Shown: positions 450 to 62,427, numbered from the stretch's first letter. The stretch is 64,000 bases of DNA from Deltaproteobacteria bacterium (GCA_016937015.1 JAFGWT010000062.1:2609-66608); one strand, 5' to 3'. Numbers and translations are program-made. Notes: generated by a model not told the origin, from the letters alone.

Positions 450-2144
450 CTACTCCAGTTCGTCTTCTCCAAACACAATCGCTCTGAACGCCTCTATGCG
501 GGTGGCGTCATCCTGCCAGCAATCCATAGGCAGACCGGCTTTGCGGCAAGTGTGAGAAAGGAATTCCTCCCTGTCCCAGCGCCATTCAACCGGCACCTGG
601 GGCAGCAGCAACCCGGAGTACGGCCCCCGGGTGATAATCAGACCATCCCGCCCCACCACCACATCCTCTGCCGCAATTGGCTCAGGTCGCGTCAGAATCG
701 AAATCTCATACGACAAAGTATCCAGCTCGGCGGGTGTCACAGGCGCAAATCGCGTATCCCGTATCGCCGCGGCCCGAGCCACCTCTTCAACGCACTGATA
801 CAACGGCACTCGTGCAATCACATGCCCAATACATCCGCGAAGCTGCCCATTTTTTTTCAGCGTGACAAACGCAGCACCGCTCTGACGCAGCACCTCGGAA
901 TCAGGTACAGGCAGACGTCGATTGTCCCCCATGGCAGCCGCCCGCACCGATGTCTTTGCCATGTCCATCAGCGCCCGCCGAAGTTCAGGGGTATACGGGC
1001 CAAAATCCCCGTGTTGCAACCTATCGCTGCGCAGTCCCTTTTTAACGCTGAACGCCAGTGCGCCGTACCCAACCACCTGACTTTTATCCCCGGCTGTATC
1101 GCCACTGTTCATGTATTTTAATTTCGTTACAGACCGCACATCCGCGTCAAACTGTTCAAACATGCTGGCAAAAGCATACACGGGTTTCACCCCGCACATC
1201 CCCTTGCGGGTCTGACTCGCATGGGGCAGCCATTTGTCAATCTCCCATTTTTCAAGCAGGGACAGACTGAGCGTGTCATACTCTCTCGCCACATCGTATG
1301 GAAAAAAATGAGACAAATCCGAAGAAATGACAAACGCCACATCTTTAAACGCGCCAAACATGTCAAACAATACCGCCCCGGCTTCCGCAAGCAACTTTTC
1401 ATCAGGGGTCGCAACGATCATGGGAATTATTTTCACGTCCGGCAGTGCCACCTGAATAAATGGCAACTGCACCTCCAGCGAATGCTCCTGCTCGAACATA
1501 TTTGAGTCAGCGGCAAAGATGCCGGGGTATTCCCGTGCCAGCCGGCGCACCGATGCACCATCTATGGGCAACGCACCAAGCGGGGTCTGATAGGCATCTC
1601 TGTCAAGAAGACTGATGGTGCGGGACATCCGCCGGTGACTCAGCGCCATAACCACCACACTGGTGTACTGCTGCGCATGGGCCGCCAATGCGGCGTACGC
1701 ATATCCGGCAACGGGGCCGGAATACACATAGCCGGCGTGGGGACTCAACACACCAACAACATCCCTGTCCGCCAGTTGCGCAACCACATCGGCGCCATCG
1801 TCCCGCGCATCGTTAATAAACTGGGTTATCTGAATTCCAAGCGCATCCGGGTCACCGGCGTAAAACTGCCCTGCCACCTGTGCGGTAAAGTTATCTTCCA
1901 TATGTTCACTTTCCCTGATTGGCTTTTCAGCCGGTATCGCGCCTTCTGCAGGCGGTCGCGTTACGTCACGCGCATCGGGGTCCTTCCGACTGCCACATGA
2001 CGAGCACCCAGCAAACATTAATCCCCAAACAAGAACAGGCAACAACAAAGAGACTGTTTTTCCAGTGAATGCGTGTTGCGATTCAGATGACTGTTCTTTT
2101 TTTTCGTTGACCATTGTTAATACTATAGTCCCCCCCACATGCAT
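450..2144 (-). CDS. Fusion of AmmeMemoRadiSam system protein B (MEMO1-like) and protein A (AMMECR1 domain), with an N-terminal lipoprotein-type signal
   Basis: N-terminal part carries the Memo-family motif 'LSPHAGYVYSG'; C-terminal part carries the AMMECR1 motif 'LRGCIGHV'. N-terminus 'LLLPVLVWGLMFAGCSS' looks like a lipobox signal peptide. An alternative start is the Met at about 2114. Confidence 0.75.
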   Translation of the reverse strand: MHVGGTIVLTMVNEKKEQSSESQHAFTGKTVSLLLPVLVWGLMFAGCSSCGSRKDPDARDVTRPPAEGAIPAEKPIRESEHMEDNFTAQVAGQFYAGDPDALGIQITQFINDARDDGADVVAQLADRDVVGVLSPHAGYVYSGPVAGYAYAALAAHAQQYTSVVVMALSHRRMSRTISLLDRDAYQTPLGALPIDGASVRRLAREYPGIFAADSNMFEQEHSLEVQLPFIQVALPDVKIIPMIVATPDEKLLAEAGAVLFDMFGAFKDVAFVISSDLSHFFPYDVAREYDTLSLSLLEKWEIDKWLPHASQTRKGMCGVKPVYAFASMFEQFDADVRSVTKLKYMNSGDTAGDKSQVVGYGALAFSVKKGLRSDRLQHGDFGPYTPELRRALMDMAKTSVRAAAMGDNRRLPVPDSEVLRQSGAAFVTLKKNGQLRGCIGHVIARVPLYQCVEEVARAAAIRDTRFAPVTPAELDTLSYEISILTRPEPIAAEDVVVGRDGLIITRGPYSGLLLPQVPVEWRWDREEFLSHTCRKAGLPMDCWQDDATRIEAFRAIVFGEDELE

Positions 2145-2185
2145 ATGCTAAACTGGCATCCCATTTTGGCCAGAAGAAGAGAAGT

Positions 2186-4081
2186 ATGCAACAAAATCCG
2201 AGTATTATCATGAATTTGGACGGAATCGTCAATTCGGCAACTGATGTTGCCTGTGTCATTGCCGGTCTGTCCAGGGAAGCACTGGTGGGCCGTTCATTGC
2301 GGGATCATCTGCTATCGCAGCATCAGGAACGATTCGATGCGGAGATTGAAGCCTTTCGCGCCGGTGAACAGACGCGAAGCATTTTAAAAACAACCCTTCT
2401 TGGAATCGATGACGTCGCCCGTTCCGTAAATCTGGCAATGAGTGCCGAAGACGGCAAACAAATCTCTGTTGAAATATCCTCGGATCTTTCCAGTCCGATG
2501 TCATATACCAACATCGCATCCATCGCAGATGCCGCACGCCTCCTTCCTGTGGCCCGCCGGATTGCCTCTGTCTGCCGCAAAGCGGCCACCAAGCAGGCGC
2601 TCCTGTCAGAAACAATGGTTGTCATGTCCGAAATAACCAACGCGCTGTGTTCCGCCGCCATCGAATGGGGTGGCGCGGTTTCCGACTGGCCGGTTGCGGC
2701 CACCACCGGCGGTTTTGACAAAGAATTTTTAAAAGGCGTATTCCGTTCATCCGTCATCGGAAGACTGGCCCGAGGCGACGTAATTGTTAAAGACGTCTTA
2801 CAGGATGGCACCCAGTCCAATTACTCCCTGATTTTAATCCCCCTCATGGCCTCACACACGCCAGAGGGCATTTTCATACTTTATGTGCAGGGTCACTCTG
2901 TCATGGCGCCGCGCGAACTTCAGAGTCTGGGGCTGCTGGGCGAAATCATCGGGCTTGGGATACGCTCGCTGTCGGTCTCCGATGAAACCATCGAAGACTC
3001 GCAGACACGGGCGGCGGATGCTGAAGCAACCATCGCACTTGGCAGACTCTCCGCCGGTCTGGCCCACGAAATCAACAATGCCGTCACCGTGCTTCGCAAC
3101 AACACCGAACAGATCTCCGCCAACATGGGGCATTTCACCCAGCCTGCGGATAAGGAGCTGATAATCAAAGACTCCATACGTGCGGTTGAAGTGATTCGGG
3201 ATCTCACCGATGCGCTCCGTTCCTTTGCTCCTGAAGAAACACGGGAAACCGAAACGGCAGACCTGCTGCGCATTGTTGAGATGGTGGTTGCATCCGTCCG
3301 ATTCTACGCCAAGCGCGGCATCAATGTAAATGTCAGTACCGTCAACGATGAGCCACTTCAGGTCAAATGTCGCAGTCACTTTCTCATTCGCTCTTTGTTT
3401 CTGATTTTTGTTGAACTGGTGGAGTCTGCACTGGCATCCGGGCGGGTATTAATGGTCAGCATCAATCTGTTGCCCCAGAAGCGAAAAATAGACCTCACCA
3501 TCGCGGTGTCCGCCGGCCCATTCAACGTTCCAACCGTATTACTCAGCCAGCTCGAAAAGGATGGAGCGCTGGCCCGCCTTGTAAGCCGTGCCGGCGCGGG
3601 GCTGGCATACGAAGTGAATGAGGAGAACCTTTCGCTGACCCTCTCATTACCTGTGGCCAAGGCGGTCCCTACCCGCATGCCCGCCGCCCCCGGTGGACCC
3701 AGACCGGATCGACGGGGCACTATCCTGATTGTCGATGATGAACCCGCCATCATTCGTTCGACCCGGCGAATTCTCGAAAAAGAGCACGATATTCTGGCAG
3801 CAGGCACAGCCGAAGAAGCGCTGGATATTATGCGCGCCAATCAGAATATCGATATGTTGCTGCTCGACGTGTTCATGCCTGGCATGTCCGGGCTGGAGCT
3901 GGCCGAAAGCCTGAAGCGAATGTCGTCGCCGCTCGCCCAGCGGATTATCTTTATGACCGGTGGCGCCTCCAATATGGAAATTTCGAGATTTCTCAACGAA
4001 AGCAATGCGCCGGTCCTCGAAAAGCCCCTGGACATTCAATTGTTAAATGCACTGATTTCCGATATGATATCTCTTTATTGA
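2186..4081 (+). CDS. Cytoplasmic hybrid sensor histidine kinase with C-terminal receiver domain
   Basis: HisKA H-box 'LSAGLAHEINNAVTVL', an HATPase region, then a receiver domain ('ILIVDDEPAII...LLLDVFMPGMSGLEL'). No transmembrane segment is evident. Confidence 0.8.
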   Translation: MQQNPSIIMNLDGIVNSATDVACVIAGLSREALVGRSLRDHLLSQHQERFDAEIEAFRAGEQTRSILKTTLLGIDDVARSVNLAMSAEDGKQISVEISSDLSSPMSYTNIASIADAARLLPVARRIASVCRKAATKQALLSETMVVMSEITNALCSAAIEWGGAVSDWPVAATTGGFDKEFLKGVFRSSVIGRLARGDVIVKDVLQDGTQSNYSLILIPLMASHTPEGIFILYVQGHSVMAPRELQSLGLLGEIIGLGIRSLSVSDETIEDSQTRAADAEATIALGRLSAGLAHEINNAVTVLRNNTEQISANMGHFTQPADKELIIKDSIRAVEVIRDLTDALRSFAPEETRETETADLLRIVEMVVASVRFYAKRGINVNVSTVNDEPLQVKCRSHFLIRSLFLIFVELVESALASGRVLMVSINLLPQKRKIDLTIAVSAGPFNVPTVLLSQLEKDGALARLVSRAGAGLAYEVNEENLSLTLSLPVAKAVPTRMPAAPGGPRPDRRGTILIVDDEPAIIRSTRRILEKEHDILAAGTAEEALDIMRANQNIDMLLLDVFMPGMSGLELAESLKRMSSPLAQRIIFMTGGASNMEISRFLNESNAPVLEKPLDIQLLNALISDMISLY

Positions 4082-4112
4082 GCCGACACTTCCAGATGCT
4101 GAATCTGAACTT

Positions 4113-4763
4113 TCAAAACCGTTCCTTTATGACATCAAGTGCCCCTTTGAGGCTGTATACCTGACCATCAATTATGTAGGTAGGCGTCGCCGATACGCCC
4201 GCGGCTTTGGTTTCTTCGTAAATTTTCTGCGCCTTATCGGCCATTGATTCAGAATCGTAGCATTCAGAAAATGCTTTGGATGGAATGCCATTCTGTTTCA
4301 CCATCCGCTGAATGTAGCTGGGCGGGTCCAGTTTAAGCTCATGGATGGGTTCGGCCATAACGCTGTCGTTCCACTTCCAGTAAGGCACATGTTTGGCAGC
4401 GCACCCCGCGGCTCGCACCAGCGGGCACATCATCGTCAGATCATTGCCTGTTCGAATAGCGCACATTGATCTCGCATAGTCATGACGAACCAGTCTGATT
4501 TCATCGAGGTGTCTCGCTATTGCACTGCGAAGCACTTTATGTGCACCAGGGCAATGGGGACAGTAAAAGTCAAGATACTCATGAATGACCATTTTGGGAT
4601 TTTTAGCGCCAATCCAGGGGTACCCATTTTCATCCACTCCCGTTGCAGCCGAATCCGCATTGGCCTGCCAGTCCGGTGCGGACCAGTAAAACAGCCAGGA
4701 ACCGCCGGCAGATACCGCAAACAGCAACAATAGCGCACCACCGTACAGAATTTTATTTTTCAC
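4113..4763 (-). CDS. DsbA-family thiol:disulfide oxidoreductase (thioredoxin fold), exported
   Basis: N-terminal signal/TM segment and CxxC active site 'FYCPHCPGAH'; length typical of DsbA-like proteins. Confidence 0.7.
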   Translation of the reverse strand: MKNKILYGGALLLLFAVSAGGSWLFYWSAPDWQANADSAATGVDENGYPWIGAKNPKMVIHEYLDFYCPHCPGAHKVLRSAIARHLDEIRLVRHDYARSMCAIRTGNDLTMMCPLVRAAGCAAKHVPYWKWNDSVMAEPIHELKLDPPSYIQRMVKQNGIPSKAFSECYDSESMADKAQKIYEETKAAGVSATPTYIIDGQVYSLKGALDVIKERF

Positions 4764-4970
4764 AATTTACCTCCGCTTCACATCACGCCAGCCTCGGTTG
4801 AGCGAGGACTGCAATAAAACTTGTCACATGGGCTACTTATTCCAGAGTTTATATTGTAATCAAGTATTTATGTTTTTCTTTACTTGACGAACACCTCATT
4901 CCCTGCATATGGTTCCGGCGAAAATCGATGTCATCATCCATAGGTCGACTTGACCAAAGTTTGAAAATAC

Positions 4971-6164
4971 ATGAATCAAAATCAAATACTTTCTCTTAAA
5001 GATCTGGAAGTCGAAGCCAGGCGCGTTCTCGTCCGAATTAACATGGACGTCCCCATTGAAGACTCAAAAATCCTTGACGATACACTGCTTAAAGCCGCCA
5101 TGCCCACCGTTAATTATCTCATCGAAAACGGTGCACGGGTGGTTCTGGCCGGGCACTTGGGCCCGCCGGTCGGCAGGGTTGAACCGTCGATGTCACTCGA
5201 ACCCGTTGCAGCGTGGTTTGCGGCACAGCCACATATCGGCGAAGTCTACCTGACCGACTCATGCGTTGGCGACGCCGCCAAAAGCATTATCGCCGGGCTG
5301 CGCGAAAGCCAGGTGTGCATTCTCGAAAATCTCGGATTTCACGCCGGCGAATTCACCAACGACGAAAAGCTCTCCCGCCAACTGGCCTCTTACTGCGATA
5401 TTTATGTTAACGAGGCGTTTTCGCTGAGCGAAAGCGTTCTTTCCTCGACCAACGGCATACTCAAACACGCCAGAATAAAAGTGATGGGGATTCAATACGC
5501 CCGTGAACTGCGTGCGCTGCGCAGGTTTCTGGACAAACCGGAGCGCCCGGTGGTTGCCATTGTGGGAGGGGATCGCATTGCAGATAATCTGGAATTTATC
5601 GAGAGCCTGATTCCCAGAATCGACGCGCTTGTCATTGGCGGTCAAATGGCAAACACATTCACCGCGGCCACAGGCGGCAGTACAGGAAAAGCAGTTGTCG
5701 AGGAAAAACGATTGCCTCTTGCCCGTGACATTATTGATCGGACGGCACGCAAAAACATAAATCTGGTGTTGCCCCATGATGTTCGCGCCGGCGATTCGCC
5801 CTCAGATCTTAAGGAATTCATGTCAGGCCAGGTGCCGGGCAATCTCGAAATATTTGACATTGGCAGCCGCACCATCGATGGCTGGAAACAAATCATCCGC
5901 AAAGCGGGCACTGTCATCTGGAAAGGCCATCTTGGCATGGATGCCTCCTGCGGCGATGGTACCCAGGCCGTCGCGCGTGCCATTTCAGGGGCTTCCGCCT
6001 TTTCGCTCTCAGTTGGCGCTGACAGTGCCAACGTCATCCGTCAGCTTGGTCTCGAAAAAGGATTCGATCATGTATCGGACGGCGGAGACACCACCATTCG
6101 AATGCTCGAGGGAAAAACACTGCCCACGCTCGTGGCAACGGGAAATGCGCAGTCAAAAAAATAA
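4971..6164 (+). CDS. pgk: Phosphoglycerate kinase
   Basis: 397 aa. 'LKDLEVEARRVLVRINMDVP' N-terminus and full-length PGK architecture. Conserved pgk-tpiA-secG gene order. Confidence 0.95.
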   Translation: MNQNQILSLKDLEVEARRVLVRINMDVPIEDSKILDDTLLKAAMPTVNYLIENGARVVLAGHLGPPVGRVEPSMSLEPVAAWFAAQPHIGEVYLTDSCVGDAAKSIIAGLRESQVCILENLGFHAGEFTNDEKLSRQLASYCDIYVNEAFSLSESVLSSTNGILKHARIKVMGIQYARELRALRRFLDKPERPVVAIVGGDRIADNLEFIESLIPRIDALVIGGQMANTFTAATGGSTGKAVVEEKRLPLARDIIDRTARKNINLVLPHDVRAGDSPSDLKEFMSGQVPGNLEIFDIGSRTIDGWKQIIRKAGTVIWKGHLGMDASCGDGTQAVARAISGASAFSLSVGADSANVIRQLGLEKGFDHVSDGGDTTIRMLEGKTLPTLVATGNAQSKK

Positions 6165-7868: not shown

Positions 7869-10800
7869 TCACAGCTCCAGACGCGCCATCATCTTTTGCA
7901 ATCCAAACCGTGAAATGCCAAGCAGTTCAGATGCGCGACTCCGATTGCCACCACTTTTATTCAATGCCGCACGAATGAGCTGAATCTTCAGCCGGTTCAC
8001 ATGCCCTTCAAGGTTTAAATCGGTAGCGTCTTCCATTACCGGAATGGAAAACTCCCGCAGTGCCTCGCTGAAATGGGATACATCCATAATGTCGCCACAC
8101 ATGACCGTGGCACGCACGATTTCATTTTCAAGCTGCCGCACGTTCCCCGGCCATCGATAATGCATCAGATGCGCCATTGCCTCCCTCGAAATCTCTATCT
8201 GCCGACTCGGTGCATGCTTCTTCAGAAACCCACGCACCAGCATTGGAATATCAATGCTGCGCTCCCGCAGTGGCGGCAGTCGCAGTTCCATCACATGCAA
8301 ACGATAATACAGATCCTCCCTGAAAGTCCCCTTTCTCACGCACTCCTTCAGGTCCGCGTTTGATGCCACCAGAATACGAACATCCACTTTAATCGAATTG
8401 TTCTGCCCCACAGGACGGACCTTGCCGTCCTGAAGCACCCGAAGCAATTTGGACTGCATTTCGATGGGCATGTCCGCGATTTCATCCAGAAACAGCGTTC
8501 CGCCGTGTGCTTCAGCAAAAAGGCCACTGCGGTTTCGAACCGCTCCCGTGAACGCCCCCCGCACGTGACCGAACAATACGCTTTCAAGCAGCGGCGCCGG
8601 AATTGCCGCACAGTTTTCAGCAATAAACGGCTTATCTCGACGCCCCCCCGCCTGATGAATCGCCCGGGCTGCCAGCTCTTTTCCGGTACCCGATTCGCCA
8701 CTGATCACCACCGGAATATCGGTGGCGGCGACCCTGTCCAGTAATCGAAAAATTTCCATCATCGGCCTGGATGCACCAATGATACCGTGATAGTCATACT
8801 GCGCCGCGAACTCCCCGTTCACTTCCCTTAAATTCTGTCGCGTCGCCGCCAGCTCCCTTTCGGTAATCTCCAAACGGGATTCCAGTTTACGGTTAAGCGA
8901 TTCTATCTGCACATGGTTCTTCTGCACATGGGCCAGCAGCCTCGCATTTGTAAGCGCGACAGCAGCCTGATGCGCCAGCATTTTCAGCAATGCCACCCGT
9001 TCGCCGTCGAACTGCCCACGGGTGGTGCTATCGAGATAAATCGTTCCCCGGGCTTCGCCTTTCACCAGCAACGGCACCGCAACGATATACATCAGATTGA
9101 GCAGGGCCACGCTGCGATAATCGCGATACTGTTCATCTTCCTGTGCATTGGTTGTTACGATTGGCTCTCCCTGTTCGAAGGCCCGACGGGCGACCGAACC
9201 GGAGTAATTCTGTTCCTTTGCAAGTATGGCCTCACTGTCCAGATTTCTGGCCGAGCGGACTGAAAAGCTGCCATCGTCCTCCCGCAACAGCAGAAACCCA
9301 CGCTCCGCACCTGTCACGTCGATTGCAGTATCCATGATAATGTCCAGCTGCGCATCCACATTCAGCTCAGAATTGAGCCTCGCTGCTATTCTTATCAAGC
9401 GCTCCATCCATATCTGTTTCATGCTGTTTTCCTCTGCTGTTAATTCCGTCCGGGCCAGCCGGGCATCTGTCTGGGTTCGCATATTCAATAACTGAACTTC
9501 GTACGGATAACTGTCTGGCTGATGAACTGCGGGCGTTTGCCTTCGAATTTCATCAAGCAATTCCAGAGCACGCACACTCCAAAAATAGCACCGGTCCACA
9601 TTGCCCAGTCGAAGAGCGCCAATCGCCGCAATGGCCATCGCCTGATAGGATTCAAGACTGAACAGCTGCGTCGCTTCGGACAACGCCCCATCAAGATCCA
9701 TCACACTGGACGACACAGCGCCCCGCCCCCTGAGCGCAAACATCACCCGAAGTGCCAGCCAGGCGTGACTCTCAAACACAATGTCACTCTCAATTTTCGA
9801 AAACTGTGAATAGGCGTCGTCAATTCGCTCCATGTGCATCACGGAATCCGCCAGGTGAAGCAATGCAAAATCGCGCTGCACCAGTTGCTTTCTTCTGTCA
9901 AAAATAGCCACCGCACGAGCAAGCGCTTCCGCTGCATCAGCATACTGCCCTGTTGCCAGCAATGACTCCCCCAACACCGTCAGCGCATGTCCAAATACCA
10001 GGGGATTTTCGTTTTCATTCATATCTCCAACTGCTTTTCGCGCCGCCCAAAGTGCGTCTCGCCCATCTCCCAGTCGCAGCAGCAACTGCGCGTAGTTGGA
10101 TTCCGCCTGCACCAATTCCACTGGACGCCCCACAAGACGCAGTCGATTCATGCCATTGCGGTAGCGTATCAATGCATTTTGCACGTCGCCCAGTTCGGTC
10201 AGCGCCGCAGCCCAGTTGACCACATACGTCGCCGCGCCATGACTGTCGCCGGATTCATCAGCGAACCGAAATGCGGTCTCATAGCGTTGTGCCGCTGCTG
10301 CCCAGTCTTTTTGCACATGAGATACCATCCCCAGATATGCATGGTACCGTCCCGCCTCAATGGGACTGCCGTGACTGACGGTACTTAGACCTTTATTGAA
10401 GATATCCTGCGCCCCTGCAACATCACCGGTGTGCAACATCAGCAACCCTCTGATATTGAACATCCCGCTCTGATGGGCCAGTTGGTCGCTTAACGATTCG
10501 CCCGCAACCAACGCCAGTCCTTTTAAAGGATCTCCTCTGTCCAGATAAATTCGAGCCAGCAACGCTTTGGCCGACGCGCGAACAAGCGGTTCAGGTGAGG
10601 TCTGCAGGCCGGTAAGTATCTCATGCGCCTCGTCCACGCGTCCATCGAGACGCAGCGAGGCCGCCTTTTCAAACAGCGCCTCACCGCTATCGTCGGCGTC
10701 GAGTACTTCGGCCACCAGGTGCAGCGCCTTTTGATACCGTCCGGATCGCCGATAGCACACTGCCAGCTGCAATCGCAGCGCATCCGTCCCAGCCCCATCA

Positions 10801-12896
10801 CACGCCAGCAGTTTTTCCAGACAGGAAATTGAAAGACTCATATCCCCGGCATCAGTCGCCTTGGTTATCGCTGCCTGCAGCAGCGGCACCGCTTCTTTCA
10901 ACTTCGCCCCGGCAAAAGCAAGCTGTCCCCGTTCCGCCGCGGATCGCTGGGGATGCAATCCTTCAAACAGCTGGCCACTCAGTCGGGCCAACTCACCGTT
11001 TTCCAAAGACAGGCGAATACCATTTGAAACGTAGGACACGAGCGATATCCATCCACCATTCAATTGCAGATACCCGGCCCGCCCCAGGCGATTGACTGCA
11101 TTGTCGACAGCGGTAGCCGAAAAAGAGCCAAGAGTCGCGTAAATCTCGCTCTGGTCCAACCCGACCTGGACCAGGGACAGCACAGACAGAATCTCCCGTT
11201 CGACAGTGTCCACATGTGCCAATAACCGACGGGCCACCAGCAATCCCACGTCTTCCGGAAAAGTAATATCCGCCGGCATATCTCCCAGCTGATATCGATT
11301 GTCCACAAAGAAAAACTGTTCCACCAGCGCTTCCACAAAACGCGGATTTCCACCGGCTATCCGGTGAATACGGGATGCCATTGAATCTGAGAGTGCAACG
11401 CCGGTAATATCCGTCACCATCTGTTGTTCCTCGGCACTGGACAGGGGGGCGAGGGAAAGCAGCAGCGCAGTGCCCGCCAGTTCTTTGGAAAAAGTTACGT
11501 CGGAATTTTCGAACAGCAAAACAACGCCGCCGTCCACCGAAAAGGATTCGCGCTGAACCATATGCGCAGCCGCCACAAACTGCTGCGCTGTTGCGTCATG
11601 AAGCAAAATGACCATGGGTCCGAACTGACGACGCATCATATCGAACAACCCGGCCATCGCGGACTCGCTGACGTACCCAACGTCGCTCTCGGGCTGTCTC
11701 ACCATGCCCTCTCCACCTTCATAGCCAGGCAGGTCTGTCAATTTTGCCCTTTCCGATGCCGACAAACGATTTCGCATCTGCGATAAAATCTGCGTAAATG
11801 TGCCGGATAGATATGTAATGGAACGCTTTGCATGCTGAACATGATCAATCTGCTCGGACGCAACCACTTTGCGGACGAGCCGGGTTTTGCCTACGCCAAC
11901 GGCGCCATTTACAATCCCGAGCCCCAGCCTGTCCTGCTCAAAGGTCTCACGAATGAACGTTCTCAGTTGGCGAACCGCCCCTTGCCGCCCCACAAATCGC
12001 GTTGCTTTGGCGGCAGCAAGGCGAGAGACAGCATCTTCCGCTTCGCTGGCATCATCCAGATGTCCGTCTGCAGAAATTTTCGAGCCGGCACCGCTTTTTT
12101 GAAGCGCCAGGATCGTCTCACGGGCTGAAAAACGTTGCTCCAACCGGGGATGGATCATTCGTCTCAGCACTTTTGCCAGTGGCGGGGGGACACTGCCCGG
12201 AATGGGTGTCTGAGCACCAACGCCTTGCGCATCAATATTGAATGCGGGTGAAACACCGCCAATCAACTGAATCAATACCTGTCCAAGGGCGTAAATATCA
12301 CTTCGCTCGTCCGCCAGCCCCTCGAACAGCTCATCGGCCATATACCCCAGAGTGCCCGCCTTGATGCCAATGGCGTTATGCTTGAATCGCGCCAGGCCTA
12401 AGTCTATCAGATGGGGGATGCCATCACGGTCGACAATAATATTCGACGGCTTCACATCAAGATGCAGCAACCCCCTTGAATGCAAAAGCCGCAACGCCCG
12501 AGCAACCCCCACGCCAATGTTTACCGTGGATTCAAGTCGCGCCTCAGGGGCTTGCGCCTCAATATATCTGTCCGCACGAATGCCATCCACAAGCGCTTCT
12601 GTAAAAAAAACATGGCTTTCAGGCAACGCACCGGCAGGAACGACGTGTTGAATCCGCTGAAAATCAAACACACTGGCAAGATTTGGATGCTGAAGATCCA
12701 GCAGATAGGTGTATTCGGTCTCCAATGCACCCGCACCCGCGTCCGGGCTCAGCTTTAGCGCGCGCCGACATGAAGATACAGTATCCATGACTTCGTATAC
12801 CGCCCCCTGAGTGCCCTCCCCCAACGGACGAATCAGCCGGTAGCGTCCATTTAAGGTAATCCCCATATCTCCGTATGCGTCATAATTATCAATCAT
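7869..12896 (-). CDS. Multidomain regulator: Ser/Thr protein kinase + STAND/AAA ATPase + TPR repeats + GAF + sigma-54 activator (AAA+) + Fis-type HTH
   Basis: Kinase motifs '[13 protein letters not shown]' and 'DLGLARF'. P-loop '[10 protein letters not shown]'. Long TPR-like helical repeat region. GAF-like segment ('[20 protein letters not shown]'). Sigma-54 module '[15 protein letters not shown]...GAFTGA...FLDEIADMP...FREDLYYRL'. C-terminal HTH '[19 protein letters not shown]'. Confidence 0.85.
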
Positions 12897-12919
12897 GACA
12901 ACTTAGTTGCTAAAACCTC

Positions 12920-13175: not shown

Positions 13176-14519
13176 ATGATTCCTTCAAAAAACGCCACAC
13201 CACAGCACTGGCTGTCACTGGCCAATGCGGACTGGAAAACGCAAATGAAGCATCTGATTCAAAGCCCAGACCAGCTTCGCGATTTCCTCAACCTTTCTGA
13301 CCGACAAATCAACGAGATAAATCGGGCGTCGCAGCTTTTCCCAATGGCAATTACGCCCTATTATGCATCCCTGATTGATACGAAGGATCCCCAATGTCCA
13401 ATCCGGGCACAGGCTGTCCCGACCATCAGGGAAACTGATTTTGCCAGCGCAGATATTGAAGATCCCCTCGCGGAAGACCACGACAGTCCCGTCCCGGGAA
13501 TAACACACCGATATCCGGACAGGGTATTGCTGGTCGTATCGCAAATGTGTGCCATGTTTTGCCGGCACTGCACCCGGAAGCGCTCAGTCGGTGACGAAAC
13601 CCACACGCCGTCAAAAGACAGCCTTAAAAACGCAATTCAATATATCAGGGACACACCCGGAATAAGAGATGTGCTCATCTCAGGCGGCGATCCGTTTTTG
13701 CTGTCGACCAAACGGCTGGATTGGATTTTAACCGAGCTCAATGGGATTGAGCATGTGGAAATCGTTCGAATTGGGACCCGCACCCCTGTTGTGTTGCCAC
13801 AGCGGATTGATGATGAACTTGTCAATATGCTGAAAAAACATCATCCGGTGTGGGTAAATACCCATTTCAATCATCCCAGGGAAGTGACGGCCGAAAGCAA
13901 AAAAGCGCTGCGCAAACTGGCGGACGCCGGTATTCCCCTGGGCAATCAGAGTGTTTTGCTGCGGGATGTCAATGATTGCCCACTCATCATGCAGAATCTG
14001 GTGCATCGAATGGTTCAAAACCGTGTCCGCCCGTACTACATGTACCAATGCGATCTGTCCCGGGGCATTGAACATTTTCGAACGTCGGTCTCCAAAGGCA
14101 TCGAAATCATGGAGATGCTGATTGGACATACCAGTGGATTCGCGGTGCCAACCTATGTGGTCGATGCCCCGGGGGGGGGTGGGAAAATACCGCTGACGCC
14201 CCAGTATCTCATTTCGATGGGCACAAGAAAGGTGGTATTGCGCAACTACGAAGGTGTTATCTGCCTTTACAGCGAACCGCCCCAAAAGGAGAGCAGCTGC
14301 CCGGCCGACTGCCAGTACTGCGATGACCTGACGCCCAAAAGCAAGCCCACTCCCAAAGGCTCAAAATGGGCCACCAATGTTGGGGTGGGAAAACTGTTTG
14401 ACGATTCAAATAATGTGATAGCCATTGTTCCGGAGAATCTTGAGCGCGTCCAGCGTCGCGAGGAGAATTATCAGGAGAATCATCAGGAGAACATTAATGA
14501 CGGGGAAAAGAATGACTGA
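13176..14519 (+). CDS. ablA: Lysine 2,3-aminomutase (radical SAM), AblA/KamA
   Basis: Diagnostic KamA cluster 'CAMFCRHCTRKR' and full KamA-like length. C-terminal acidic repeat tail 'ENYQENHQENINDGEKND'. Confidence 0.9.
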   Translation: MIPSKNATPQHWLSLANADWKTQMKHLIQSPDQLRDFLNLSDRQINEINRASQLFPMAITPYYASLIDTKDPQCPIRAQAVPTIRETDFASADIEDPLAEDHDSPVPGITHRYPDRVLLVVSQMCAMFCRHCTRKRSVGDETHTPSKDSLKNAIQYIRDTPGIRDVLISGGDPFLLSTKRLDWILTELNGIEHVEIVRIGTRTPVVLPQRIDDELVNMLKKHHPVWVNTHFNHPREVTAESKKALRKLADAGIPLGNQSVLLRDVNDCPLIMQNLVHRMVQNRVRPYYMYQCDLSRGIEHFRTSVSKGIEIMEMLIGHTSGFAVPTYVVDAPGGGGKIPLTPQYLISMGTRKVVLRNYEGVICLYSEPPQKESSCPADCQYCDDLTPKSKPTPKGSKWATNVGVGKLFDDSNNVIAIVPENLERVQRREENYQENHQENINDGEKND

Positions 14520-15438
14520 CGCCGCCTCCATTTCCCATTCCTGCCCCAAAGTGCCTGATTCGGTCGTCGAACTTGACACACTGCCGCAATATGGGGTTAC
14601 CCAACGCATCGATGGCGATGGTTACACCTACACAGCCTTTTTCAGCAATAGAAACGACAGAATAAGGGTAACGGACTACCAGGTTTTTGACCATGAAGGG
14701 ATAATCCAAAGTCTCAAACACCATGCGCGTCAACACCAGCATGGGAAAATATTCCTCAAAGCACATGCCAAAGACGCCGCAGATTTTAAATGTGCCGGGC
14801 TGGATGAGGAAGCGCGCATCGCAGGGTACTTCAATGGCGATGATGCGGTCGTGCTTTCATTGTTTACCGATGACCGTCGGGCTATTCCGCGTCCTCCCGT
14901 CCCGGAGAGAGAGAAAATCGTCGCCTCTGCCCGCCATGGGTTTCAGACACCTGCCCGTCCCCGACCTCTGCCAGGTGATTTCAGATGCCGTCTCGCCACG
15001 CCTGAGGATGCCCCTGCACTGGCGCGCGTTTTCGCAAACAATTTTGAATCATACCCCTTTCCGGTATTTGATGCGACATATGTACAACACACCATGGCCA
15101 ATGATGTGCTGTACATGCTCATCTCCCGCCACAGCGAAATCGCGGCGGTTGCATCGGCGGAAATGGTTCCCGCACTTTCAAATGCAGAGATGACCGACTT
15201 TGCGACCATGCCCAGGTACCGGGGCAATGGATTGGGTGCGTTTCTGCTGCGCGCACTCGAGATTGAAATGAAAAAAAGACGCATTCAATCCCTTTATACG
15301 CTGTCCAGAGCCAGCTCGATATCAATCAACCGAATCTTTGGCAAAGCCGGATATCGGTACACTGGCACCCTGGTGCAGAACTGCCATATCAGCGGCCATT
15401 TTGAAGACATGAATTGCTGGTGCAAATCACTTCAGTAA
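14512..15438 (+). CDS. ablB: Beta-lysine N6-acetyltransferase (GNAT), AblB
   Basis: Start ATG overlaps the kamA stop (ATGA-type coupling). ~308 aa with a GNAT C-terminal half ('RYRGNGLGAFLLRALE'). Size and context match the ablAB operon. The ORF-track start at 14425 would overlap kamA in another frame and is less likely. Confidence 0.75.
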   Translation: MTDAASISHSCPKVPDSVVELDTLPQYGVTQRIDGDGYTYTAFFSNRNDRIRVTDYQVFDHEGIIQSLKHHARQHQHGKIFLKAHAKDAADFKCAGLDEEARIAGYFNGDDAVVLSLFTDDRRAIPRPPVPEREKIVASARHGFQTPARPRPLPGDFRCRLATPEDAPALARVFANNFESYPFPVFDATYVQHTMANDVLYMLISRHSEIAAVASAEMVPALSNAEMTDFATMPRYRGNGLGAFLLRALEIEMKKRRIQSLYTLSRASSISINRIFGKAGYRYTGTLVQNCHISGHFEDMNCWCKSLQ

Positions 15439-15514: not shown

Positions 15515-16615
15515 ATGAGTATAGAATCGATTATCCCAACCCAGCCCATCAGACATCAGATCCTTTGCATTGACGATGATCCGATCATCCTGTCGTCATT
15601 CAGCAGGGATTTCAAGGACATTGACGCCGAGGTCACACTGGCGGACACGGCGGAGCTGGGATTGAAACTGGTGGATGAACATCAGTTCACCGTTGTGATT
15701 AGTGATCTCAAGCTGCCTGGCGCGGACGGCATCAAATTTTTGCAGAGTGTTTCAAGGCGGTATCCAGATACGGTGAGAATTCTTATATCGGGACATGCCG
15801 ATTTTGATTCGGCAGTAAAAGCCATTAATCAAACCGGTCTGTTTGGTTTCATATCCAAACCATGGTCATCGGACGCGCTCAAGGACACCGTGCAGCGCGC
15901 CATCGAACACTACGACATGACGCAGGAAAACAAAAAGCTGACCGCTGCGTTAAGTGTGAAATGCACCGAGCTTGGCATAATGACTATCAATCTCGAAAAG
16001 GAAGTCCAGGCGCGCACGACGAGCATGCTATTGGGGATGGTCAATGCGCTGGACCTCCGGGATACGGAAACCCACTGGCATTCTCGACGGGTGGCGCTCT
16101 TTGCCAAACGACTTGCCGAGGAAATGGAACTGGACGAAACGCAGATTCTCGAAATTGAACGGGGATCTCTGTTGCACGACGTGGGAAAAATAGGCGTTTC
16201 CGATACCATTTTGCTCAAACCCGGTAAGCTGACCCCGGAGGAATGGGTCGAGATGAAACGCCACGCTGAATACGGTTATCAGATTTTACAGAATGTCGAG
16301 TTCCTGCATGACGCCCGGGATGTGGTGTGGCAGCATCACGAACGCTGGGACGGGGGGGGATATCCGCGGGGATTGAAAGGTAAAGACATTTATGTGGGGG
16401 CCCGCATTTTTTCAATTATCGATACGTACGATGCGATGACTTCCGACAGACCATACCGAAAAGCGCTCTCTCATGAAATTGCATGCAGGGAAATCAGCGA
16501 CATGAAAGGGACGCAGTTCGATCCGGATATCGTTGATATGTGGGAACGGATTCCTGAGTCCGATTTGATTCGATTAAGGGAACAGACTTTTACCCCAACA
16601 TCGGGACTGCTGTAG
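15515..16615 (+). CDS. Response regulator with HD-GYP c-di-GMP phosphodiesterase domain (RpfG family)
   Basis: Receiver domain ('ILCIDDDPIIL...VVISDLKLPGADG') followed by HD-GYP ('HSRRVA...LLHDVGK...HHERWDGGGYPRGL'). Confidence 0.85.
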   Translation: MSIESIIPTQPIRHQILCIDDDPIILSSFSRDFKDIDAEVTLADTAELGLKLVDEHQFTVVISDLKLPGADGIKFLQSVSRRYPDTVRILISGHADFDSAVKAINQTGLFGFISKPWSSDALKDTVQRAIEHYDMTQENKKLTAALSVKCTELGIMTINLEKEVQARTTSMLLGMVNALDLRDTETHWHSRRVALFAKRLAEEMELDETQILEIERGSLLHDVGKIGVSDTILLKPGKLTPEEWVEMKRHAEYGYQILQNVEFLHDARDVVWQHHERWDGGGYPRGLKGKDIYVGARIFSIIDTYDAMTSDRPYRKALSHEIACREISDMKGTQFDPDIVDMWERIPESDLIRLREQTFTPTSGLL

Positions 16616-16647
16616 CAGCTTCAGAATGGTCGAAACGGAGTGCACCC

Positions 16648-17619
16648 ATGGAACGTTCTGAGCGACTCACATATGAGGAAATCTCTCAAATTGAGCTGAC
16701 GGGGCTTCACATTCTGCGCCGAACATCCATCGAAGCGGTGTTTGGACTTCTGGAGCACTGTACCGTGCAGTTCCTGGCATCGGGCGCCATACTTCTCGAA
16801 CAGGGACAGACCAACAGCACGATGTATCTCGTACTGGCCGGCAAACTCAGCGTGCATCTGGACAAACCCGATGCAGAGCCGGTAGCGTATCTTGAAACAG
16901 GGCAGACGGTGGGGGAAATATCAGTCATCGATGCCAGCCCGGCCACCGCGTATGTCAAGGCATCTGAACTCACGCGCCTGCTGGCCATCGATGAAATGAC
17001 GTTCTGGCGACTGGTGGAAGTGTCTCATGAATTTGCGACCAATATGCTTTTGCTTCTTGCAGGGCGACTGCGGGCCAATAACACGAAAATTATTGAAAAC
17101 ATTAATCTTCGGATGCAAATGGAGCACGAGGCATCAGTGGATGCGCTGACTGCGCTTCGCAACAGACGCTGGTTGGACACCAACCTGCCAAGAATGACCA
17201 GTCGCCACCAGTATTCGAAAAAGCCGTTCTGCGTTCTGATGCTGGATGTGGACCATTTTAAAAATTTCAATGATGAGTATGGTCACGCGGCAGGGGATGT
17301 GGTTCTCGCGGAGGTGGCCAGAGTTATCATGGCCAAATTGCGTCCCACGGATTTGGCTGCCAGATATGGCGGCGAAGAATTCTGTATCATGCTGCCCGAT
17401 ACCAACCTGGAAGGCGGCGTCGTGGCCGCCAACCGAATTCGGGAAGCCGTGTCCGGTACAAAGGTTATTTCTCCCGACGGCCAGCCACTCCCTCAGGTGA
17501 CCATATCGCTGGGGGTGTCGTGCGTGCAAGACAAAGATACCCCCGAATCGCTTATCGGGCGGGCCGATGAGAGGCTGTACCGCGCCAAAAAAAATGGTCG
17601 CAACCGGGTGGAAAGCTAA
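16648..17619 (+). CDS. Cyclic-nucleotide-binding domain / GGDEF diguanylate cyclase
   Basis: cNMP-binding-like N-terminus ('GQTVGEISVIDASPATAYV'), then a GGDEF domain with active-site 'RYGGEEFCIML' and 'RADERLYRAKKNGRNRV'. Confidence 0.85.
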   Translation: MERSERLTYEEISQIELTGLHILRRTSIEAVFGLLEHCTVQFLASGAILLEQGQTNSTMYLVLAGKLSVHLDKPDAEPVAYLETGQTVGEISVIDASPATAYVKASELTRLLAIDEMTFWRLVEVSHEFATNMLLLLAGRLRANNTKIIENINLRMQMEHEASVDALTALRNRRWLDTNLPRMTSRHQYSKKPFCVLMLDVDHFKNFNDEYGHAAGDVVLAEVARVIMAKLRPTDLAARYGGEEFCIMLPDTNLEGGVVAANRIREAVSGTKVISPDGQPLPQVTISLGVSCVQDKDTPESLIGRADERLYRAKKNGRNRVES

Positions 17620-26905: not shown

Positions 26906-28021
26906 TTGACAGTAAACCAGCTCACATATTTTGGTATCCTTCGCGCTCCCACCAGTTGGGCCAAAGTCTGCCGCGAACTGGTCAACGCTCTGGCTCACAT
27001 GAAGCTGGACCTCAACATTTTTGAGCGAAAAGGATTTCTCTATGATTCAAACTTCGCCATCGCGGATGAGGTGGAATCGCGCATCACCAATCAGTTTCGC
27101 AACGACGTGGTATTCACGTTCGAGCATCCATCCACCTACCACATGCTTGAAGGCCGTTACAAAGTAGGGATTTTGACCTATGAAAGCACCGTTGTCCCCC
27201 CACTCTGGATAGAAGAGGCAAACAAACATCTCGACCTGCTGCTGGTCTCGTCCACATTCTGCCGTGATATTTTCGTGCAGTGCGGCATGGACGACGAAAA
27301 AATCGACATTCTTCACTACGGGTATAACCCCGAAATATACACACCGACAGGGCCGGCGATGGACCTGTCAAGAGAGACCGACAGGAACTTTAAATTTTTG
27401 GCGGTGGCATCACCCCACAAGCGAAAAGGGCTCGAGACCCTTCTGCAGGCATACCGCAATGCCTTTACCGCTGACGATGACGTCGTGCTTATCGTCAAAA
27501 TCAACTACATCCCCAAAAAACGGGGCAAACCGTTTGAGTATCGAGACATTCACGGGATGTTTGATACGTTTAAAAAAGATCGCTCTGCGCCGCAGGTGAT
27601 ACTCATGGATACATTCTTTTCGGAACATGACATTGCCGCATTGTACCGCAGTGCGGATTGTCTGGTCTCAGCGACACGCGGAGAGGGTTTTGGCATGGTT
27701 TATCTCGAGGCGCTGGCATGCGGTTTGCCGGTAATGGTCACAGGCTGGAGCGGCCACATGGACTTTCTCAATCACGAAAACGCAACGCTTATCGACTATC
27801 AATTGCGCACTGCAGGTGAAATCCAATACGATTGCAACTCCCAAAAAGCCAGAATCGCCGAGCCCGACGTGCATGACTTCAGCCGGAAACTGTTTTTGGC
27901 GATGAAAAATCCAAGGACTATCCGCTATGCGCCCGCCGATCGAAAATTCGAATGGCACAATCTGGCAAATCATTTCCTCGATACCATCTCAAAGCGGATT
28001 GCACAGACGCCAGTCAGTTGA
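26906..28021 (+). CDS. Glycosyltransferase family 1 (GT-B)
   Basis: 'EGFGMVYLEALACGLPVMVTGWSGH' is the GT1 EX7E-type signature region. Start is uncertain: the ATG at 26864 overlaps the divergent radical SAM start codon, so an in-frame TTG at 26906 or later is more plausible. Confidence 0.7.
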   Translation: MTVNQLTYFGILRAPTSWAKVCRELVNALAHMKLDLNIFERKGFLYDSNFAIADEVESRITNQFRNDVVFTFEHPSTYHMLEGRYKVGILTYESTVVPPLWIEEANKHLDLLLVSSTFCRDIFVQCGMDDEKIDILHYGYNPEIYTPTGPAMDLSRETDRNFKFLAVASPHKRKGLETLLQAYRNAFTADDDVVLIVKINYIPKKRGKPFEYRDIHGMFDTFKKDRSAPQVILMDTFFSEHDIAALYRSADCLVSATRGEGFGMVYLEALACGLPVMVTGWSGHMDFLNHENATLIDYQLRTAGEIQYDCNSQKARIAEPDVHDFSRKLFLAMKNPRTIRYAPADRKFEWHNLANHFLDTISKRIAQTPVS

Positions 28022-29978
28022 TTGCATTTTCCTTAAGACACGAAAAATATTGTCTATCTTCGGTAAGAATATGCTGCACCACCACCTCAACTGCCAAAAA
28101 GTCGACCAGCGTTTCAAATGGCAATTCTTTTCTGTTCGCGGCATTGCGTAACTGTGACGCCCGAATGAGCAGTCGCTGATGTCTCTCCGCATGCGCATCG
28201 CGCAATGGCCATTTCTGTTGTTCGAGAATCTGCTCTTCATGAGTGAAATGCTCTGAAATATCGTTAATTAATATTTCGAGTGCGCCAAAAAACTGAGCGG
28301 GTTGGTGCTCCTGTGTCATCGCGGCATTGATCACCTGATTGGCCAATTCAAACAGATTCCGATGCTCCGCATCGAGTACAGGGTCTCCACTCTCGAAAAT
28401 ACTGCGCCATGACAGAACAAGTGGTGAATCCTGTTCGGGTGACGCCCAGGAGACAACCCGCGAATCCTTATCGGGAAATGAGAGCATCTCGACCCTGTTG
28501 CGCCCTGCCCGCTTGGCCTGATACATTGTGTCATCACTGAGTCGCATGAGTTCATGCTCACTGTCAGCATGATCCGGAAAGAGCGCTACCCCAATACTGG
28601 CCGAAATCTGCAGGGGCCCGCAATTGGTGAAATGAAAAGGCTTTTGAACAGCGATACGAACCCGTTCGGCTATTACCATCGCATCCGCCGGGTCTGCCAA
28701 ATCCGGCAGCAGGATAACGAACTCGTCCCCCCCCATTCGCGCCGCGGTGTCGTAGGCCCTCAGAGTTTCAAGCAGTCTGTTGGCCACCTCAGACAAGAGT
28801 CTGTCGCCTATGTGATGGCCAAGTTCATCGTTTACCGGCTTGAAATCATCCAAATCAATAAACAGAAGTGCGATTCGTCGATGTCTGCGCCTGGCATGAC
28901 GTATCGCCTGTCGCAAACGGTCATAAAGAAGCCTGCGATTGGGAAGTCTGGTCAATCCATCGTAAAATGCGAGTCTTCTGAGCTCATCCTCCGCACGCTT
29001 TCTTTCCGTTATGTCGTGGGTAACCCCCAGCAACGCTGACGGATTGCCACTGTCGTCGGGATGTATCGATACCACCAACTCAACGTCCACCACGTGCCCA
29101 TCCTTATGCAACTGCTGAGTTTCAATCGACCGATACTCCTCTCTGTTCAGATTTCTATCCCAATTTTTCAGCGCATCTTCCAGCATTCCCTTCACTCGAT
29201 TTTTTTCACCATCTGTAAACGCTGCCCACGGAGACTGCGCCACCGCTTCGTCTGGTGACATCCCCCGCAATTTGGCAACTGCCGGACTCACATAGGTCAA
29301 ACGCTGACTCGGAATATCCATCATCCAAATCACATCATGATTATGCTCTGCAATAAAACGAAAGCGTTCTTCGCTCTCTCTAAGTTCCAACGTACGTTCA
29401 TCTACGATTTTTTCCAGATTCTCACGATACGCAGCCAGCTCTCCAGCTGCCCGTCGCTGTCGCGTCACATCGACCGTTGCGATAACATAGGACTGCGGAT
29501 TAACGCCCCGGCCATTTATCAGTTCCACATATAAATCAACCCAAACCAGCTTTTCATGATTCCCCCGACACGGCTCAATCAGCACATAGCGGTTATCGCG
29601 GCTGCCGGCAAAACAGTCTTCGCCAAAGAGTTTGTTGCGGGCGGTATCTGAAAAAAAAATGTCGCCAAAGTGAAAACCAGGCGCCATTACCGCTTCATGG
29701 GTGTACCCAAGCATCTGACAAAACGCTTCGTTCGCATGAAGCATGCGCCCTTTGCAATCCACATGGACAAGTCCCACCGCTGTGTTCTCAAAAACCGCCC
29801 GAAAGAGCTCCTCGCTGCCAGCGAGTCGCTGAGTGACCTTTCGGATGCTGAACATCAAAATTGTCAGCAGCCCAATAACAGCGATGGAAGCGACCAGCAG
29901 CACCAACTGAATTCGTCCCACAGTGGCAGTCTTCAACTCAAATATCTGATGGATTGCGAGAAGGCTCATGCATGTCAC
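28014..29978 (-). CDS. Membrane-anchored PAS/PAC - GGDEF diguanylate cyclase with C-terminal hemerythrin-like (HHE) domain
   Basis: N-terminal TM, two PAS-like segments, GGDEF ('RMGGDEFVILL'), and a C-terminal hemerythrin metal-binding pattern ('HFTHEEQIL...DAHAERHQRL'). Confidence 0.8.
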   Translation of the reverse strand: MTCMSLLAIHQIFELKTATVGRIQLVLLVASIAVIGLLTILMFSIRKVTQRLAGSEELFRAVFENTAVGLVHVDCKGRMLHANEAFCQMLGYTHEAVMAPGFHFGDIFFSDTARNKLFGEDCFAGSRDNRYVLIEPCRGNHEKLVWVDLYVELINGRGVNPQSYVIATVDVTRQRRAAGELAAYRENLEKIVDERTLELRESEERFRFIAEHNHDVIWMMDIPSQRLTYVSPAVAKLRGMSPDEAVAQSPWAAFTDGEKNRVKGMLEDALKNWDRNLNREEYRSIETQQLHKDGHVVDVELVVSIHPDDSGNPSALLGVTHDITERKRAEDELRRLAFYDGLTRLPNRRLLYDRLRQAIRHARRRHRRIALLFIDLDDFKPVNDELGHHIGDRLLSEVANRLLETLRAYDTAARMGGDEFVILLPDLADPADAMVIAERVRIAVQKPFHFTNCGPLQISASIGVALFPDHADSEHELMRLSDDTMYQAKRAGRNRVEMLSFPDKDSRVVSWASPEQDSPLVLSWRSIFESGDPVLDAEHRNLFELANQVINAAMTQEHQPAQFFGALEILINDISEHFTHEEQILEQQKWPLRDAHAERHQRLLIRASQLRNAANRKELPFETLVDFLAVEVVVQHILTEDRQYFSCLKENAIN

Positions 29979-30258
29979 TAAAAATTCTCATACAAAAGTG
30001 TGTGCCCAAATAACTGTGAGTCAATTAAAGGAAAATGATTTTCGCCGCTCTCGAGGGAATGAAAATCCTTCGGCAGTTCATTTGCAGCGAACTCGAAATG
30101 ATCTACATAAGATTAATCTTAAGCCTCAAAAAATTCAAAAATAGAATAACTTTACGTTGTCATTTTTCTTTCAGGTATCGGCAGATTATTTTCTTACCAA
30201 ATCAGACATTTTCGGATATGTTCCCGGCCAGTAACAACAATCTTTTTGGGAGGAAAGA

Positions 30259-30855: not shown

Positions 30856-30874
30856 CGAAGAAGGGTTTTTTGGA

Positions 30875-33649: not shown

Positions 33650-33674
33650 TTTTAGCCTGATTCAGTTTTCCATC

Positions 33675-34136: not shown

Positions 34137-34139
34137 ATT

Positions 34140-34523: not shown

Positions 34524-34539
34524 TTAAAACTCCCCAGTT

Positions 34540-36793: not shown

Positions 36794-36871
36794 GAACTTT
36801 TATTATTTAGTTTTATTATCAGGTGCCGTTTATGTAAAATGCCAGATGTAACATCAAACTGGGGGTATCCA

Positions 36872-37270: not shown

Positions 37271-37312
37271 AAATCACCACTGCATTTATTTTTGAAATAA
37301 TTGCGAATCGCT

Positions 37313-42027: not shown

Positions 42028-42046
42028 ATAGGCATCAATCCTGCAA
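42028..42046 (+). promoter_or_regulatory. Candidate sigma-54 (-24/-12) promoter for the activator gene at 42100
   Basis: 'aGGCATcaatccTGCAa': GG and GC elements with the canonical 10-nt spacing, ~55 nt upstream of the start codon. Confidence 0.4.
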
Positions 42047-42099
42047 AAGAACCTTGCAGCCTGATTGTTGTAGTCGGGATTATTTTGGAGGAACAACCC

Positions 42100-58014: not shown

Positions 58015-58027
58015 CGCACATCTCCCG

Positions 58028-59428: not shown

Positions 59429-59437
59429 TGCAGCCTC

Positions 59438-62421: not shown

Positions 62422-62427
62422 TCCTTT

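Follow-up and report, generated by a model that had tools for sequence, protein, structure and literature searches.

A kinase-STAND-sigma-54 activator gene in a deltaproteobacterial genome and a conserved palindrome at its own promoter

Gene, domain order and family

The window analysed here is a stretch of 64,000 nucleotides from Deltaproteobacteria bacterium (GCA_016937015.1, JAFGWT010000062.1:2609-66608). Its minus strand carries an uninterrupted open reading frame (ORF) at 7869..12896, with an ATG start and the stop codon inside these coordinates, that codes for a regulator of 1675 amino acids. In a Pfam profile search the domains follow each other in the order Pkinase, AAA_16, TPR, GAF, Sigma54_activat, AAA_lid_14 and HTH_8, each above its gathering score. 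This agrees with a preliminary description of the locus, in which a Hanks kinase (Pkinase), an NTP switch (AAA_16/STAND), TPR repeats, sensing by GAF and an entire sigma-54 activator (Sigma54_activat, HTH_8) had been read from the bare sequence as a single polypeptide. The features of the locus, in window coordinates, are:

7869..12896 (-): whole ORF, kinase-STAND-TPR-GAF-sigma54 AAA+-helix-turn-helix (HTH) regulator (ORF, Pfam, database match)
12114..12842 (-): Hanks-type Ser/Thr kinase domain, residues 19-261 (Pfam Pkinase, PF00069, residues 19-261, 89.7 bits against a cut-off of 31.7, 2.6e-25; PDB sequence matches; family conservation)
11007..11984 (-): STAND domain, made of nucleotide-binding, helical and winged-helix domains (NBD-HD-WHD), residues ~305-630 (Pfam AAA_16, residues 300-385, 44.8 bits; AlphaFold2 (AF2) model; Foldseek)
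9432..11000 (-): TPR sensor super-helix, residues ~633-1155 (Pfam TPR_12, 35 bits, and further TPR models, residues ~690-1000)
8946..9365 (-): GAF domain, residues 1178-1317 (Pfam GAF_2, residues 1178-1315, 66.3 bits, 4e-18)
8799..8945 (-): helical linker from GAF to AAA+, residues ~1318-1366 (AF2 model, sequence)
8052..8783 (-): sigma-54 AAA+ domain and lid, residues 1372-1615 (Pfam Sigma54_activat, PF00158, residues 1372-1538, 231.7 bits, 5e-69; AAA_lid_14, residues 1544-1615)
7887..7982 (-): Fis-type HTH_8 DNA-binding domain, residues 1639-1670 (Pfam HTH_8, residues 1639-1670, 31.6 bits, 1.3e-7)
12896..12912 (no strand assigned): 17-bp palindrome TGACAACTTAGTTGCTA, consensus TGnCAAC-N3-GTTGnCA (conservation upstream of homologues)

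A search of a database of 5.8 billion proteins returned many collinear homologues of 1600-1720 amino acids with 36-63% identity. Because they align over 99% of the query and come from dozens of independent assemblies, a frameshift or assembly error that makes one gene out of several can be excluded. The identity of the window protein as a kinase-STAND-sigma-54 activator fusion is nearly certain. The preliminary description had implied that such a fusion is rare, and this was not borne out, as PF00069 and PF00158 occur together in at least 74 among the 120 clusters listed and the exact protein is already deposited at NCBI, where it comes from a 73.6-kb contig and is named 'MAG: sigma 54-interacting transcriptional regulator [Deltaproteobacteria bacterium]'. 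Source names of the clusters include Polyangiaceae, Myxococcota, Planctomycetota, Zixibacteria, Eisenbacteria and Minicystis rosea, the last being a cultured organism with a complete genome. The close subfamily was found in GTDB representative genomes only in metagenome-assembled genomes labelled Polyangia, Myxococcota, Myxococcales or Deltaproteobacteria, and some relatives are named 'PknK' by the pipelines of the Joint Genome Institute. The fusion thus belongs to a widespread, experimentally uncharacterised family that stands in the databases under generic names, and the window protein is one of its many members, with no feature that distinguishes it. Sister proteins (P0093-P0118) keep the kinase-AAA_16-TPR-GAF part and end in HisKA/HATPase, GGDEF, SpoIIE or GerE outputs. 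Since the outputs are exchangeable, the kinase-STAND-TPR-GAF part behaves as a sensor chassis.

Evolution is much faster in the regulator, and most of all in its STAND-TPR part, than in the neighbouring genes. Between the window and four related loci (L001, L003, L004 and L006) the kinase-activator gene is 53-61% identical, while most flanking genes of the same genomes are far more alike (TIM 89-96%, AblA 77-85%, a histidine kinase-response regulator pair 84-86%, PGK 71-83%). Inside the protein, the C-terminal module keeps 54-80% identity between homologues, against 28-50% for the STAND-TPR part.

Kinase, STAND and sigma-54 activator domains

A kinase fold at the N-terminus is supported by the Pkinase match listed above and by PDB sequence matches to PknE, PknA, StkP and PknB (4e-18 to 1e-13). 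The motifs quoted in the preliminary description are at the expected places, HLDVKPSN at residues 145-152 (12441-12464) and DLG at residues 165-167 (12396-12404), together with a glycine loop GEGTQG, K48, E61 and a GT..ADE segment at residues 181-189. In an alignment of 76 homologues the glycines of the loop are conserved, as are K48 (70 of 76), E61 (69), H145 (75), D147 (70), K149 (64), N152 (67), D165 (72), G167 (73) and E189 (72). The two features on which the preliminary description had based its proposal of a pseudokinase scaffold, a non-RD catalytic loop and DLG in place of DFG, vary among these homologues, with the middle residue of HxD being G in 25, L in 19 and R in 17, and DLG and DFG occurring 36 and 34 times. 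As the catalytic residues are kept through this alternation, non-RD and DLG are the norm of a family under selection and not signs of decay, and the Ser/Thr kinase is probably active. Ahead of the conserved GT, the activation segment lacks Ser, Thr and Tyr in the window protein, and in a non-RD kinase this points to control probably by proximity or docking, not by loop phosphorylation; the kinase would then have no need for phosphorylation of its activation loop. In place of the APE motif the window protein has ADE, with Pro present in 68 of the 76 homologues.

The central region has the NBD-HD-WHD core followed by a repeat sensor that characterises a STAND NTPase. An AF2 model of residues 285-1160, with a predicted local distance difference test score (pLDDT) of 81.6, has a P-loop beta-alpha-beta core, a helical domain, a winged helix and TPR. 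Foldseek gave as its best PDB match the STAND protein PH0952 (6mfv_A, 3e-11), with Avs3 next and MalT domain III (1hz4) also among the best structural matches. PH0952 and MalT came to light only by fold, since comparing a profile of the STAND-TPR region with PDB sequences gave hardly anything but TPR and PPR repeat proteins. The STAND motifs are a canonical Walker A GAVGVGKT (331-338), a Walker B MVILLHD (428-434) and a GxP motif GGNP (515-518). Conservation in this domain and in the sigma-54 module was scored over 46 homologues, and Walker A and the GxP motif are conserved. In Walker B (11595-11615) the first acidic position is His433 in the window protein and Glu or Asp in 42 of the 46, and D434 is kept. 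Within the TPR super-helix, the block at 856-944 is the most conserved part in the close subfamily. The STAND subfamily of MalT includes Ser/Thr kinases such as PknK of Mycobacterium tuberculosis, and STAND proteins are held in a closed ADP form by contacts between sensor and NBD until an inducer brings about exchange for ATP and a multimerisation that joins the effectors (PMC6468293, PMC4381067).

The C-terminal third reads as a bacterial enhancer-binding protein (bEBP; EBP in general). Its AAA+ domain matches ZraR, FleQ, NtrC and PspF in the PDB (1e-72 to 1e-54), and residues 1161-1662 match NifA of A. vinelandii (9qq6_C) end to end (1e-73). Although the module resembles NifA, the protein is not a NifA, since the NCBIfam nifA equivalog TIGR01817 scores 360.2 bits, below its cut-off of 528.85; no curated model reached its cut-off in the NCBIfam scan of the window protein. 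GAFTGA lies at residues 1447-1452 (8541-8558) and Walker B reads LFLDE. Walker A and B, GAFTGA, the arginine finger and the sensor motifs are invariant or nearly so, and the arginines R1526/R1532 and R1587 are present and conserved. Eight loci, the most distant at 54% identity, share 13 invariant positions in the HTH segment, among them those of the C-terminal helix G-L-Q-K-M..R. Every domain of the protein is intact, with purifying selection on the catalytic motifs of the kinase and of the sigma-54 AAA+ domain and on the STAND Walker A.

The linker between GAF and AAA+ prolongs the last GAF helix into a single helix of ~69 residues with a heptad-like pattern, which in an AF2 model of residues 1150-1675 is helix H149-217 (model numbering), with a pLDDT of ~75-80 over most of its length. 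It may be a signalling helix of a kind that usually forms a parallel dimer. A GAF domain has been described as an intramolecular brake on the bEBPs NorR (PMC2941729) and PexR (PMC12754779).

A palindrome at the gene's own promoter

The palindrome was first seen when the upstream regions of four close relatives were aligned, and the comparison was then widened to 14 homologous, non-redundant loci, of which 12 have the exact core CAAC-N3-GTTG upstream, in 18 copies. In 2000 shuffled controls the mean number of regions with a core was 0.084 and the maximum two, and none reached 12. No exact core was found at L004 and L014; a palindrome with one mismatch was seen directly in L004, and in L023, which was taken as the same place as L014. 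Counted over ~410 kb of DNA (the loci and the window), 23 of 28 exact cores fall in regulator upstream regions. The DNA around the palindrome is only 50-57% identical between most of the loci compared. It is also kept in homologues of 37-43% identity with unrelated neighbouring genes. Outside the window, copies lie at these positions.

L001: 7969
L003: 7961
L005: 7884 and 7984
L006: 487 and 600
L010: 8023 and 8120
L013: 7822, 7841 and 8108
L016: 8016
L017: 7177
L018: 8115
L020: 6043

Two other readings of the element were tried and rejected. A hairpin in RNA or DNA is ruled out by the flanking n positions, which do not covary, and a sigma-54 promoter by the GG and GC, which are not conserved except at L017 and L022. 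Because there is neither covariation nor a conserved -24/-12 element, and because the palindrome persists where the neighbours are unrelated while the HTH is invariant, we take it as a protein-binding site of the regulator itself, probably the recognition site of its HTH_8 domain. The 7-N3-7 layout resembles NtrC-type sites. Classical EBPs such as NtrC repress their own promoters and activate sigma-54 promoters elsewhere. Autoregulation of the gene is the simplest reading of a site in this position, and its sign would probably be negative.

The palindrome lies directly against the annotated ATG. It overlaps a sigma-70-like promoter, TTAGCA-17-GATAAT, which is weak and scores at chance level by itself. 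A promoter here would favour Met11 (12866) as the start, in agreement with the short N-termini of the homologues. The annotated ATG (12896) has no Shine-Dalgarno sequence, and the Met11 ATG at 12866-12864 has a GGAG ahead of it and gives an N-terminus as long as that of the homologues, so that the true start may be Met11, 30 nt further in, instead of Met1. The choice has no effect on the domain architecture.

We consider the palindrome the most useful new result of this analysis, as it provides a predicted recognition site with which the regulon can be sought in the complete genomes of the family.

Proposed mechanism and genomic surroundings

In PknK of M. tuberculosis too, as its architecture is given in the literature, a Hanks kinase at the N-terminus precedes a STAND region like that of MalT. 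PknK is not known to have a GAF, sigma-54 AAA+ or HTH domain and acts in trans by phosphorylating regulators, whereas the window protein carries kinase and transcription module on one chain. MalT, PH0952 and AfsR combine a nucleotide-binding oligomerisation domain with a helical-repeat sensor (TPR or SUPR) and a DNA-binding effector, and in MalT-type activation an inducer brings about the switch from ADP to ATP and multimerisation (PMC6468293). The effectors of these proteins are simple LuxR, ArsR or SARP domains that act on sigma-70 RNA polymerase. The window protein instead has a kinase and, as its other effector, a second AAA+ ATPase, mechanically active and dependent on a ring of its own. 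NifA, NorR and PexR share the order GAF, sigma-54 AAA+ with GAFTGA and HTH_8, and they differ from the window protein in its ~1150 extra N-terminal residues and the ~69-residue helix between GAF and AAA+. In dual Ser/Thr-His kinases and kinase-TPR-GGDEF proteins of cyanobacteria and Clostridium, an N-terminal Hanks kinase is likewise followed by repeats and/or GAF and a second output (Krupa & Srinivasan 2005), but the output of the window protein is a sigma-54 activator. The parts and their logic are thus all known, from PknK/MalT-type STAND proteins and NifA/NorR-type EBPs, and the fusion is visible in databases. A full-text literature search returned no paper that describes or tests a kinase-sigma-54 activator fusion. 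The myxobacterial kinome of Perez et al. 2008 and the Sorangium genome paper of Schneiker et al. 2007 may mention such fusions.

The best explanation of these observations, to which we give a probability of roughly 55%, is that a PknK-like N-terminus and a NifA-like enhancer-binding module are joined in a protein gated by its STAND domain. At rest the STAND core would be closed and ADP-bound, shut by the TPR sensor. A ligand or a partner protein on the TPR would open the core, ADP would be swapped for ATP and the protein would multimerise. Multimerisation would gather the kinase domains, which would be controlled by proximity or docking and not by loop phosphorylation, and would concentrate the sigma-54 AAA+ modules into an active ring on DNA at palindromic sites. 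GAF and the long helix would form a second intramolecular brake, released by a small ligand or by phosphorylation, as in NorR, NifA and PexR. The invariant HTH would bind TGnCAAC-N3-GTTGnCA, the copy over the gene's own promoter leading to autoregulation, probably negative, and the kinase would act on the window protein itself or on other substrates.

The usual switch of an EBP is a receiver, GAF, PAS or V4R domain or a partner protein, and the effector domains presented by STAND proteins are usually simple ones. It is conceivable, although we hold this more tentatively than the gating itself, that STAND oligomerisation is an undescribed switch for sigma-54 EBPs, in which a MalT-type ATP switch is coupled to an AAA+ ring and to a Hanks kinase output, and the protein works as a coincidence detector of TPR ligand, GAF ligand and phosphorylation with the palindrome as a family-wide site. 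If so, the family would exemplify the coupling of two ATP-driven oligomerisation machines, a STAND switch and a sigma-54 AAA+ motor, and in bacteria rich in signalling, Myxococcota among them, eukaryote-like phospho-signalling would be wired straight to sigma-54 transcription.

Several observations weigh against STAND-gated activation of sigma-54 promoters. No -24/-12 promoter was found in the intergenic region between the regulator and ablA, rpoN is not in the 64-kb window, and further copies of the palindrome in the window occur at chance level. With His433 in its Walker B, the STAND ATPase of the window protein may retain nucleotide binding and yet be poor at hydrolysis, and ADE in place of APE may alter substrate docking by the kinase. 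The C-terminal AF2 model has an overall pLDDT of 70.5, which is moderate confidence. The genome does seem to use sigma-54, since two other EBPs are encoded in the window, and the sigma-54-dependent targets of the regulator would lie outside it. A search of the window for TGGCAC-N5-TTGCW with up to two mismatches gave 36 matches against 45 expected, and a stricter GG-N10-GC scan left only two intergenic candidates, at 30071 and 42030; neither scan yielded a target of the regulator.

The strongest rival is a serial relay in cis, where the kinase serves only to phosphorylate its own GAF, linker or AAA+ region, this phosphorylation and not STAND oligomerisation is the switch of the EBP, and STAND-TPR merely controls the kinase. 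The kinase is always kept beside the varied outputs of the sister architectures, PknK of M. tuberculosis autophosphorylates, and the close subfamily has a conserved acidic linker, LDDxSEAED (residues ~279-287), with a nearly invariant S284. However, no phospho-acceptor site was identified, and neither FHA nor any different phospho-reader turned up in the Pfam scan of the protein. Induced proximity of effectors is the general mode of action of STAND proteins (PMC6468293), and a hexamer-forming bEBP would benefit from it directly. We regard the relay as rather unlikely.

A second objection, somewhat weaker again, concerns the palindrome, which could be bound by another conserved transcription factor or be a promoter element instead of the regulator's own operator. 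Its right half, GTTGnCA, includes TTGnCA and so resembles a -35 hexamer, but a -35 box does not account for a left half that is just as invariant and always 3 bp away. At L017 and L022 the element even reads as a good sigma-54 promoter, TGGCAA-N5-TTGCT, but the GG and GC of -24/-12 are absent in most loci. The loci with the palindrome share only the regulator gene itself, and in three lineages a second copy lies 97-113 bp upstream, as is usual for arrays of EBP sites.

The proposal of a pseudokinase scaffold, with catalysis lost, a kinase-like domain that docks partners or stabilises the oligomer and signalling left to STAND, GAF and EBP, seems improbable. HLD and DLG are indeed there, and ahead of the invariant Glu the six closest relatives vary (APE, GPE, PPE, AAE, GKE, AQE), which together with ADE in the window protein suggests a relaxed P+1/APE constraint in the subclade. 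Nonetheless, K, D or the DFG Asp is typically what a pseudokinase has lost, and the VAIK Lys, HRD Asp and DFG Asp are all retained here (K48, D147 and D165) along with every other Hanks catalytic residue, each in 64-75 of the 76 homologues, while HGD, HLD and HRD alternate freely as family traits. Least probable is a mainly sigma-54-independent regulator that acts chiefly as repressor or autoregulator at the palindrome and uses AAA+ for oligomerisation alone, like TyrR or GAFTGA-less EBPs, since, even though the sole candidate binding site lies over the gene's own promoter and not upstream of a -24/-12 element and a distant subclade has replaced GAFTGA, a perfect GAFTGA, both Walker motifs (A and B) and the arginine fingers are retained in the window protein and each of its close relatives, two more EBPs are in the window, and NtrC-type proteins have a dual role. 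The distant subclade (P0044-P0050, P0053-P0055) has the same ~1675-aa architecture with EKTATGV or EKAATGV in place of GAFTGA, and its members have probably lost the contact with sigma-54.

In relatives of 52-61% identity the neighbours pgk-tpiA-secG and ablA-ablB again flank the regulator, one group on each side, and homologues of 37-43% identity have unrelated neighbours. Synteny was rejected as functional evidence, because the recurring neighbours are mostly 70-96% identical and the genomes are simply close relatives. The divergent ablA-ablB operon (13176-15438, +) codes for lysine 2,3-aminomutase (TIGR03820, 654 bits against a cut-off of 525) and beta-lysine N-acetyltransferase (TIGR03827, 271 against 205), the pathway of the osmolyte N-epsilon-acetyl-beta-lysine, and has no sigma-54 promoter ahead of it. 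Genes of cyclic-nucleotide signalling are dense at 15515-17619 and 28014-29978 (receiver-HD-GYP, cyclic-nucleotide-binding GGDEF and PAS-GGDEF-hemerythrin), and those for receiver-HD-GYP and cyclic-nucleotide-binding GGDEF stay beside the regulator locus in L004 and L008.

The preliminary description had also named an FHA-PP2C phosphatase as a plausible partner. The gene (30830-32557) codes for FHA and a SpoIIE-type PPM phosphatase, lies 18 kb off beside a chemotaxis cluster, and beyond its FHA domain no evidence was found for or against a link to the regulator. A sigma-54-like CGGCAG-N5-TTGCA at 30071-30086 (+) lies 173 nt ahead of a 198-aa ORF (30259-30855), which is followed by this phosphatase. 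The two other EBPs are adjacent, one with a receiver domain (40164-41573, +) and one PspF-like without a regulatory domain (42085-43092, +), the latter with AGGCAT-N5-CTGCA (42030-42045) 40 nt upstream. The chemotaxis cluster (cheB, cheX, HDOD, cheR, cheA-cheW) spans 32603-40081 and flagellar genes (flgK, flgI and others) 57136-63974, in a genome with closest relatives labelled Polyangia or Myxococcota, a group that to our knowledge is not usually flagellated. Ahead of the distant homologue at L023 lies a partner-switching cluster (2063-5937; XylR_N/V4R, GAF-STAS, STAS, two HATPase_c_2 and SpoIIE), which may be a coincidence or a hint of a link with PPM phosphatases.

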